DNA of 24,000 bases from Tissierella praeacuta (lineage in GTDB: Bacteria > Bacillota > Clostridia > Tissierellales > Tissierellaceae), in the NCBI RefSeq assembly GCF_040396155.1, contig NZ_JBEBOY010000001.1, forward strand, positions 243,208 to 267,207, written 5' to 3'. The position numbers and the translations under genes are program-made. The notes beneath the pieces were generated by a model. That model saw nothing but the letters and a program-made list of their open reading frames with translations. It searched no databases and had not been told where the DNA came from. This document shows, in pieces, positions 20,122 through 21,405 of this stretch (positions are counted from its first letter, which is position 1; each line of letters opens with the position of its first letter).

Positions 20122-21405
20122 TTAGACTCCATACATTAATATATCAACATGAAATCTTTTTTCAGTATGATATACTTTCATATTACCATCATATTTCTTT
20201 AAAATCTTTTCTATATTATTTAATCCTATACCATGATTTTCTTTGTCCTTTTTAGTTGTTTTTATTTTATCTCCATCATGGATAATAGAACCATCAAAAG
20301 AATTATTAATATAAATAAATAGTATGTCATTTTTATACTTAATTCTAATATCAATAATTTTATTACTTTCAACTTTGGAACTAGCTTCTATTGCATTGTC
20401 TAACAAATTCCCTAAAATCACTACTATATCTAATGGCAAAATATTTAATTTAGATGGGATTTTTAGTTCTAGTGTTACTGAAATTCCCTTTGATTCTGCT
20501 TCCTGTAATTTATAATTTAAAATGCTATCTATCTCTATATTACCTGTTCTGGATAATTGTTCCTTTTCATAGAGGCTATCATTTATTTGCAGAATATAAT
20601 CAATGGATTTTTCTCTTCCTCCATTTTCTATATATCCTTTTAAAGCAAGTAAATAATTCTTCATATCATGACGTAAAGATTTTATATTTTCATAAGAACT
20701 ATTTATAATTTCGAGTTGTCTTTGATAATATTTATTTTGTTCTTCTAATGCTAATTTCTCCATTTTATCTTTAAATGCCTTACTTAAAGTATCATATAAG
20801 TAGAAAACAATTATATTTATTAAAAATAATATAATGATGCAACCTACAGTTTTATATATATTTAAGTTGAAATTTTGTAAAAGAGTCAAGATGATACATA
20901 AGCTCCCTAATGGTATTAAAAATATAGATAATCAATAGATATTTGGAATATCTATTCCTTTCTTTATATTTCTATATCCTCTCATTATTAATGCAATCAT
21001 GTATGAAATTATATTTATAGCAATCATTCCGATAATTGAAGAATATAGTGGATTACTGCTAAGACCATTAGTATAAACAAATCCCGATAATAAAACGATT
21101 ATACTCTCTATAGGCATTAAAATCATATATATAGTCATAATGGATATAATTCTATTTTTTATAGATGATTTATAATTAAATGTTAAAGCAAAATATAAGC
21201 ATATATTACTTATCAATGTGACTATGGGAATATTAATAGCTAAATATATAAAACTAATGACAACGAAATAAAGTATATAAGAAAAAAATTCTGTTTTTTT
21301 ATTTGTATCGCTGGTATCAAAAAATACATCCATAAATTTGTATGTAGTATAAGTTCTAAAAATACTGGTTATTAAATAAACATAATCATAAATATTTAAA
21401 TTCAT
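20122..21405 (-). pseudogene. agrC: AgrC-like (HPK10-type) membrane histidine kinase interrupted by one in-frame TGA
   Basis: Track fragments 20932-21405 (157 aa, polytopic sensor domain) and 20122-20889 (255 aa) are in the same frame. The second fragment carries the H-box SLRHDMKNYL, N-box LGNLLDNAIEAS and G-box ENHGIGLNNIEK. The fragments are separated only by TGA at 20932-20934 plus 14 sense codons (...DIPNIY*LSIFLIPLGSLCIILTLLQNF...). The reconstructed length of about 427 aa equals a normal AgrC. The ATG of the sensor fragment overlaps the regulator stop (ATGA). Confidence 0.8.

Follow-up and report, generated by a model that had tools for sequence, protein, structure and literature searches.

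The closest described counterparts of the locus considered here are the agr quorum-sensing systems of Staphylococcus aureus and of clostridia such as Clostridium acetobutylicum and C. autoethanogenum. Repeated knock-out of agr is well documented in S. aureus, where it has been tied to within-host adaptation and social cheating. Frameshifts in agr were found in more than 5% of 40,000 genomes of that species, with the greatest diversity in agrC and with convergent recurrence, and two lesions in one operon were rare (91/2,997) (PMC8768832). Our literature search for a described agr system in Tissierella yielded nothing specific. We analyzed a 24,000-nucleotide stretch of Tissierella praeacuta DNA (GCF_040396155.1, contig NZ_JBEBOY010000001.1, positions 243,208-267,207; hereafter the window, with coordinates counted from its first base) that carries an agr-type locus in the order regulator-kinase / agrD-agrB, in which the gene for the receptor kinase is broken by a single in-frame TGA. 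The evidence presented below makes it very probable that the receptor arm of this agr-type quorum-sensing locus has undergone a genuine and recent pseudogenization.

One kinase gene interrupted by a single stop codon

The genes of the kinase region lie on the minus strand throughout. Translation of positions 21405 to 20119 in a single frame gives 157 codons, one stop and 269 codons, followed by TAA TAG. The two open reading frames (ORFs) called in this interval, one of 157 aa and one of 255 aa with a TTG start (20889..20122), have this frame in common and are separated by the TGA (context ATC TAT TGA TTA TCT) and 14 sense codons; joined, they encode a product of 427 aa. The original prediction had held that the two ORFs are one gene split by one in-frame TGA. 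The common frame, the full-length homologues and the alignment all agree with this, and retranslation reproduced the position it gave for the TGA, its count of 14 sense codons and its length of about 427 aa.

With the two parts joined and an X placed at the stop, a search of a large protein collection returned 3422 matches, the best 120 of which were used to assess homologue length and coverage. Nearly all of the best matches are 423-433 aa long and cover ~100% of the query, and the top match among those listed is a 427-aa protein that is 96% identical to the joined kinase. Among the 120 matches listed, all but five are single chains of 423-442 aa. We further aligned the query with 18 homologues (43-96% identity). 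The H, N and G boxes (H246, N333-N337 and G392/G394) are invariant across the 19 kinases, and the column of the stop is occupied by Trp in 18/18 homologues, directly after a nearly invariant Tyr.

Pfam identifies a HATPase_c_5 domain (PF14501) in the 3' part of the kinase (96 bits against a cut-off of 22), and no Pfam match was obtained for the 5' sensor part. Among solved structures, the S. aureus AgrC kinase module matches best (6e52; E = 3e-9, residues 220-407), and the highest-scoring NCBIfam model is the AgrC equivalog NF046015, which reaches only 49 bits where the cut-off is 500. On this score strict orthology to staphylococcal AgrC was rejected, which makes the kinase AgrC-like, a distant member of the family and not an orthologue. 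The locus has the features by which AgrC-type (HPK10) kinases are recognized: a GHKL-type core, a polytopic sensor lacking any large extracellular domain, an adjacent LytTR regulator (Response_reg and LytTR domains directly upstream, with its TGA stop overlapping the kinase ATG) and linked AgrB and AgrD. The earlier naming of the kinase as AgrC-like is thereby upheld by its Pfam domain, by its best PDB and NCBIfam matches, both of which are AgrC, and by its agr-type neighbors. We regard it as an evident AgrC-like (HPK10) receptor, not a strict AgrC orthologue, with a putative response to a cognate cyclic peptide as the activating ligand.

Hydropathy analysis (Kyte-Doolittle), a crude method that leaves the exact number unsettled, predicts ~6-7 transmembrane (TM) helices in residues 1-204, as five strong segments (one of 37 residues and probably two helices) plus a weaker N-terminal segment. 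Residue 158 falls at the cytoplasm-to-membrane entry of the sixth of the ~7 predicted helices, and the predicted helices 3' of the stop span residues 158-176 and 186-204. The kinase core had earlier been credited with about two TM helices; this holds for the sequence 3' of the stop, but a product initiated at the TTG would retain one complete TM helix. That TTG is codon 173, within the predicted helix 158-176, and is the only downstream in-frame start ahead of the cytoplasmic domain. Its Shine-Dalgarno-like GGGAG (20907-20903) lies 13 nt upstream, in keeping with the earlier judgment that the start is poorly placed.

A G-to-A transition at a conserved tryptophan codon

The ancestral codon can be read from the DNA of relatives. 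TGG stands at the position of the stop in nine related loci (L002, L005, L007, L008 and L013-L017), and every one of the related loci retrieved (L002-L005, L007, L008 and L013-L017) has it. Across regulator and kinase, DNA identity to the window is 95.8% for L002-L004, 87% for L005 and 80% for L008. Because Trp occupies this site in all 18 homologues and TGG is found in the DNA of the relatives, the lesion is a single G>A transition, TGG>TGA, in the Trp158 codon, which is the single Trp codon of the kinase gene. The change lies at window position 20932, where the plus strand now has T in place of an ancestral C. The original prediction had proposed a single base change, for example from TGG, TTA or TCA, and had named an alignment of orthologues as the way to find the ancestral codon; the single change stands, and of the three candidate codons only TGG is right.

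A sequencing or assembly error, with a real genome that has TGG and an intact regulator, has in its favor that a single-base difference and a change in the length of a dinucleotide repeat, such as that in the regulator described below, are typical error classes, and that NCBI annotates the pieces as ordinary proteins, not as pseudogenes (the 157-aa piece is WP_353092913.1, hypothetical protein). However, Logan contigs from SRR23622341 and SRR23622351, assembled separately, match the window with 100% identity along 3035 and 2135 bases, TGA included (L001 and L006), and the regulator frameshift is likewise present in a separately assembled Logan contig (L012). The identical TGA in two separately assembled read sets makes an assembly artefact unlikely, and the agreement among assemblies rules out assembler error and random read error. 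Moreover, four lesions fall within ~2.3 kb of one functional module, and no interrupted ORF was found in the other ~20 kb of the window. Taken together, an error is a highly unlikely source of the stop. A 26-mer around the stop, in either allele, found no match when scanned against JGI metagenome contigs.

UGA at a tryptophan site: possible recoding or readthrough

A TGA at a Trp site could also be a recoded codon, either through a reassigned code (UGA as Trp, table 4) or as selenocysteine. The very low G+C content (29.7%) and the rarity of TGA as a stop would suit such an explanation, and some Tissierella species make selenoproteins. The stops of the ~21 window genes are TAA in 17 cases, TAG in three and TGA in one, that of the regulator gene. 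Table 4 was rejected, as all 26 Trp codons of the window are TGG and TGA ends the regulator gene in all relatives; a table-4 ORF scan and codon counts found no other real window gene with an in-frame TGA. Selenocysteine was likewise rejected, as no aligned homologue has Cys or Sec in place of the Trp at the stop position. The sequence 3' of the UGA does not fold better than its shuffled versions (z = +1.1) and shows no fold like that of a selenocysteine insertion sequence (SECIS). The 14 codons from the stop to the TTG match those of the TGG-bearing relatives with one exception, codon 168, which ends in C in the window (AGC) and in T in the relatives (AGT), and this near-identity indicates that no SECIS evolved there. 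An Rfam scan of the window returned a tRNA-Leu only, with no regulatory RNA near the locus. We accordingly regard recoding as extraordinarily improbable.

Readthrough of UGA158 as Trp, by a near-cognate tRNA-Trp, an unusual tRNA-Trp or a weak release factor 2 (the tRNA-Trp and release factor genes are located outside the window), would leave an attenuated receptor, not a dead one. With Trp as the ancestral residue, UGA is the stop whose rare misreading would restore the wild-type protein, so that misreading by tRNA-Trp would yield the exact wild-type kinase. Low-efficiency decoding of UGA as Trp is known from Bacillus subtilis. TGA is rare as a stop in the loci studied here, with only the regulator gene using it in the window, and both point-nonsense lesions in the agr genes of this clade are TGG>TGA, namely W158 of the window kinase and Trp115 of agrB in a related locus (L019, see below). 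Under neutral models, a random nonsense mutation is TGG>TGA with a probability of 0.4-5% in the kinase and of 2-19% in agrB. This pattern is only suggestive because it concerns two events noted post hoc, and because a strong G>A bias is expected at 30% G+C; the joint probability is ~0.04 if G:C>A:T transitions dominate. A third decayed ORF in the window, of 60 aa, has TGG>TAA.

Several further observations speak against readthrough. UGA158 is followed by U, a context that is not known to be especially leaky, and the ~20 genes, with their 26 TGG codons, contain no further in-frame TGA. The frameshift in the partner regulator leaves what little full-length kinase could be made without a target to phosphorylate, which renders any readthrough functionally moot in this strain. 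That some bacteria carry tRNA-Trp variants with a 4-bp anticodon stem and increased readthrough of UGA speaks for the idea, but Tissierella is named neither in the main text of the survey that describes them nor in its text supplementary files (PMC13092985). On balance, we consider readthrough of this codon improbable. Were T. praeacuta nevertheless to read UGA as Trp appreciably, which we likewise hold to be a long shot, Trp-to-UGA agr alleles would be tunable quorum-sensing hypomorphs, and the species would represent an early stage of UGA capture in Tissierellia.

Decay of the regulator and of a small upstream ORF

The original prediction overlooked that the kinase stop is one of several lesions in its module, that sister lineages carry independent lesions in the same locus, and that the ancestral residue is Trp. 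The AgrA-like regulator gene of the window has lost one TA unit from a tract that reads CAAATTATATATATTTC in relatives and CAAATTATATATTTC in the window; putting TA back restores a 239-aa regulator that is colinear with those of the relatives. Upstream of the regulator, an ORF for a predicted 60-aa membrane peptide is intact and called in L002, L013 and L005, and in the window its Trp codon has become TAA (22336-22334) and two bases are deleted near 22298. Outside the module, the long ORFs of the window run without interruption: the ten that were scanned have full-length matches (e.g., BipA, Lon, ClpX, ClpP, trigger factor and DegV), and FabF is colinear with its relatives.

The products of these splits might themselves be functional, either as a two-piece kinase or through the freed 144-aa LytTR domain acting as a signal-independent regulator. 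Both kinase halves are still open, the LytTR ORF begins with an ATG preceded by the purine-rich stretch GGGGAAAGAG, and the TTG of the kinase core has the GGGAG upstream of it. However, that TTG lies inside TM6 with a Shine-Dalgarno spacing of 13 nt; 115 of the 120 homologues listed are one chain, and the remaining five, at 403-421 aa, extend over 94-97% of the query. The split products annotated by NCBI are, moreover, confined to one strain, and the branch counts given below reveal no adaptation after the split. A working pair of halves or a freed regulator thus has a very low probability in our estimation, and we treat the fragments as remnants of pseudogenes.

Table 1. Features of the agr-type locus in the window and the basis of each assignment
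Feature	Position	Strand	Basis or remark
Complete AgrC-like (HPK10-type) sensor kinase gene, 427 codons	20122..21405	-	translation, Pfam, homologues
Premature TGA in place of the conserved Trp158 codon TGG	20932..20934	-	Trp in homologues, TGG in relatives
Kinase 5' fragment, 157 aa, ~5 TM helices	21405..20932	-	translation, hydropathy
Kinase 3' part, 2 TM helices, H/N/G boxes, HATPase_c_5	20931..20122	-	Pfam, alignment, hydropathy
First in-frame start after the stop, TTG	20887..20889	-	inside predicted TM6
AgrA-like response regulator of the LytTR family, split into two ORFs (98-aa receiver, 144-aa LytTR)	21402..22119	-	ORFs, Pfam
2-bp (TA) deletion in the regulator, (TA)3 against (TA)4 in all relatives	~21859..21866	-	position within tract ambiguous
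Remnant of the 60-aa predicted membrane-peptide ORF	22204..22381	-	alignment with L002, L013 and L005
Hairpin resembling a terminator, immediately 3' of the kinase stop and within the 48-nt repeat D1	20084..20107	-	fold
Direct repeats TAAGTTTCAACAAA upstream of agrD (14 nt, two perfect copies with starts 22 nt apart)	20016-20029 and 20038-20051	-	
agrD-like autoinducer precursor, intact	19805..19984	-	TIGR04223, 44 bits against a cut-off of 19
agrB-like processing protein, 189 aa, intact	19236..19805	-	PF04647, 151 bits

Recurrent lesions in related lineages

Other members of the clade have suffered lesions in the same locus. In L013-L017 an (AT)5 tract at codon ~184 of the kinase gene is one unit shorter, a 2-bp deletion that gives rise to products of 203 aa and 213 aa. 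This lineage is 99.5% identical to the intact allele of L002, and its regulator, agrD and agrB are intact. The pairwise comparisons made of the null allele, among L013, L014 and L015, all gave 100% identity (L013 8001-9282), and the deletion is found in all of five datasets that stem from different projects (GCA_032066485.1, JGI 3300011843, SRR1749433, SRR31431544 and SRR27257866). In L019 (ERR5683763), agrB (4617-4961) has TGG>TGA at Trp115, and the kinase and the regulator are intact; the local context equals that of the kinase lesion of the window, with TGG then TT at both sites. In L005 (6737-10406), two unrelated ORFs come after a first, truncated agrB (86 aa), and after them a second kinase 3' end, agrD and agrB, these second copies being a partial tandem duplication of the agr locus. 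The lesions of the Tissierella relatives are independent of that in the window. Within the kinase cluster at 90% identity, null alleles are about as frequent as intact ones among the contigs observed, a sampling that is small and not independent. A milder version of the hypomorph idea is that such recurrent agr-null alleles may mark selected social 'signal-blind' variants in a non-pathogenic anaerobe.

The apparently split kinases of L007 (~8270-8290) and L018 (~2990-3000), two assemblies of a single related lineage of metagenome-assembled genomes, were rejected as further lesions, as both contain a 10-N scaffold gap, located identically in the two. The gap adjoins a ACTATATATATG tract and makes the gene look split in ORF lists as well as in the NCBI and JGI annotation.

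Two of the indels in the clade allow one to ask whether the lesions are reversible ON/OFF switches of quorum sensing. Both are single-unit contractions of TA tracts, (TA)4>3 in the regulator of the window and (AT)5>4 in the kinase of L013, and agr phase variants have been described in S. aureus. However, the kinase lesion of the window is a base substitution that involves no repeat. Known contingency repeats are long, far longer than tracts of 3-5 units, and such short tracts occur everywhere because the genome has 30% G+C. The recovery of function in this strain would, furthermore, need at least two independent reversions. Phase variation is hence most improbable, and pseudogenization is the preferred reading.

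Age of the lesion and a possible exchange of the region

The ratio of non-synonymous to synonymous substitution rates (dN/dS) of the kinase is 0.22 between the window and L002, and 0.15-0.18 among intact orthologues. When changes were polarized with L005 and L008, the window branch had ~7 non-synonymous and ~8 synonymous changes and the sister branch ~11 and ~10. Neither dN/dS nor the branch counts thus give a signal of relaxed selection on the kinase, and its inactivation is recent because no relaxation is detectable.

The agr module (19145-22313) is 94-96% identical in DNA to the L002/L007 lineage, and its flanks are 85-89% identical. The synonymous divergence (dS) from the same lineage is 0.08 for the kinase, 0.20 for the regulator and 0.42 for FabF. 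This pattern suggests a recent recombinational exchange of the agr region.

A 48-nt direct repeat, D1 (81% identity; 20075-20122 and 22463-22510), holds the terminator-like hairpins that follow fabF and the kinase gene, and its copies flank the module made up of the small ORF, the regulator and the kinase. Possibly the repeat was left by an insertion or a duplication of the module.

The agrD and agrB genes and their upstream region

The agrD and agrB genes lie 140-900 nt downstream of the kinase and on its strand. The predicted ring of AgrD is CMYLA, followed by YQPELP. Its annotated Met1 (19984) is not conserved in L007 and L008, and in the alignment the 50-aa AgrD of L008 begins at the position of Met10 (19957); Met10 is the likely true start. 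The TAAGTTTCAACAAA repeats upstream of agrD are kept in L005 (two copies) and in L013 (three copies). Their spacing resembles that of the repeat pairs to which LytTR regulators such as AgrA bind, and we take them to be candidate binding boxes for a LytTR regulator.

A receptor arm probably lost

Under the favored reading of pseudogenization, the G>A change at the Trp158 codon truncates the receptor gene after TM5 and would leave a 157-aa membrane fragment without the kinase. The kinase core would probably not be produced in useful amounts, since it has no efficient start and would lack the sensor; the absence of a full-length kinase product is likewise a prediction. The regulator frameshift, independent of the kinase stop, uncouples the receiver from the DNA-binding domain, so that the sensing and response arm would be dead twice over. 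The agrDB genes, presumably autoinduced in the normal case, would now be expressed at a basal level only, as they are intact and lie behind their own terminator and a putative promoter with LytTR-box-like repeats. On the strength of these sequence features, the strain has probably lost the sensing of its own quorum signal. We infer from them the loss of signaling, the loss of autoinduction and any selective advantage of a 'signal-blind' variant comparable to agr-defective S. aureus.

Of the marks expected of a pseudogene, the kinase gene displays a premature stop at a codon that is sense in its orthologues and the recurrence of this stop in other assemblies, but not relaxed selection. Three points weigh against the favored reading. 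Unrelaxed dN/dS suits a very recent lesion but would also suit a kinase gene that has kept part of its function. No nonsense lesion is intrinsically leakier than UGA at a Trp codon, and the kinase allele may be hypomorphic and not strictly null. Lastly, if the source genome shares its runs with the Logan assemblies, a systematic artefact may underlie their agreement. Even with these points taken into account, a genuine recent pseudogenization remains the reading that we hold with considerable confidence.

For annotation, WP_353092913.1 (157 aa), WP_353092917.1 (98 aa) and the GHKL protein of 255 aa are best treated as fragments of two pseudogenes, and neither as novel small proteins nor as an orphan kinase; by itself, this is a matter of annotation. 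The added value lies in the recurrent decay of the locus and in the question raised about Trp-to-UGA alleles. The pattern now extends to an anaerobic Tissierella found in many metagenomes, which offers a second, distant system for the fragility of peptide quorum sensing, and the natural pairs of intact and null alleles at 95-99.5% identity are usable for experiments.

Comparison with known systems

The kinase of the window is an ordinary recent pseudogene, and agr decay of this type is already well known from Staphylococcus. As in agr-defective S. aureus, a locus that combines AgrB and AgrD with an HPK10 kinase and a LytTR regulator has been hit by small lesions in receptor and regulator, these recur independently across lineages, and some of them lie at short repeats. 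It differs in its host, an anaerobic member of the Tissierellia, and in the order regulator-kinase / agrD-agrB as against agrBDCA. Whereas double hits are rare in S. aureus, the strain of the window has both kinase and regulator hit; and whereas S. aureus nulls appear to be short-lived, the sister null allele of Tissierella is found in five datasets. At the level of the protein, the kinase resembles S. aureus AgrC (6e52, 4bxi) in its polytopic N-terminal sensor, H box, HATPase_c_5 domain and LytTR partner, and departs from it in its low NCBIfam score (49 bits against 500) and in a sensor without a Pfam match. With leaky UGA alleles read by tRNA-Trp the locus has in common a UGA placed exactly at a Trp site. 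With the clostridial agr systems of C. acetobutylicum and C. autoethanogenum it shares AgrB together with an AgrD that has a Cys-containing five-residue ring and a conserved tail with Pro, and a kinase and a LytTR regulator encoded nearby.

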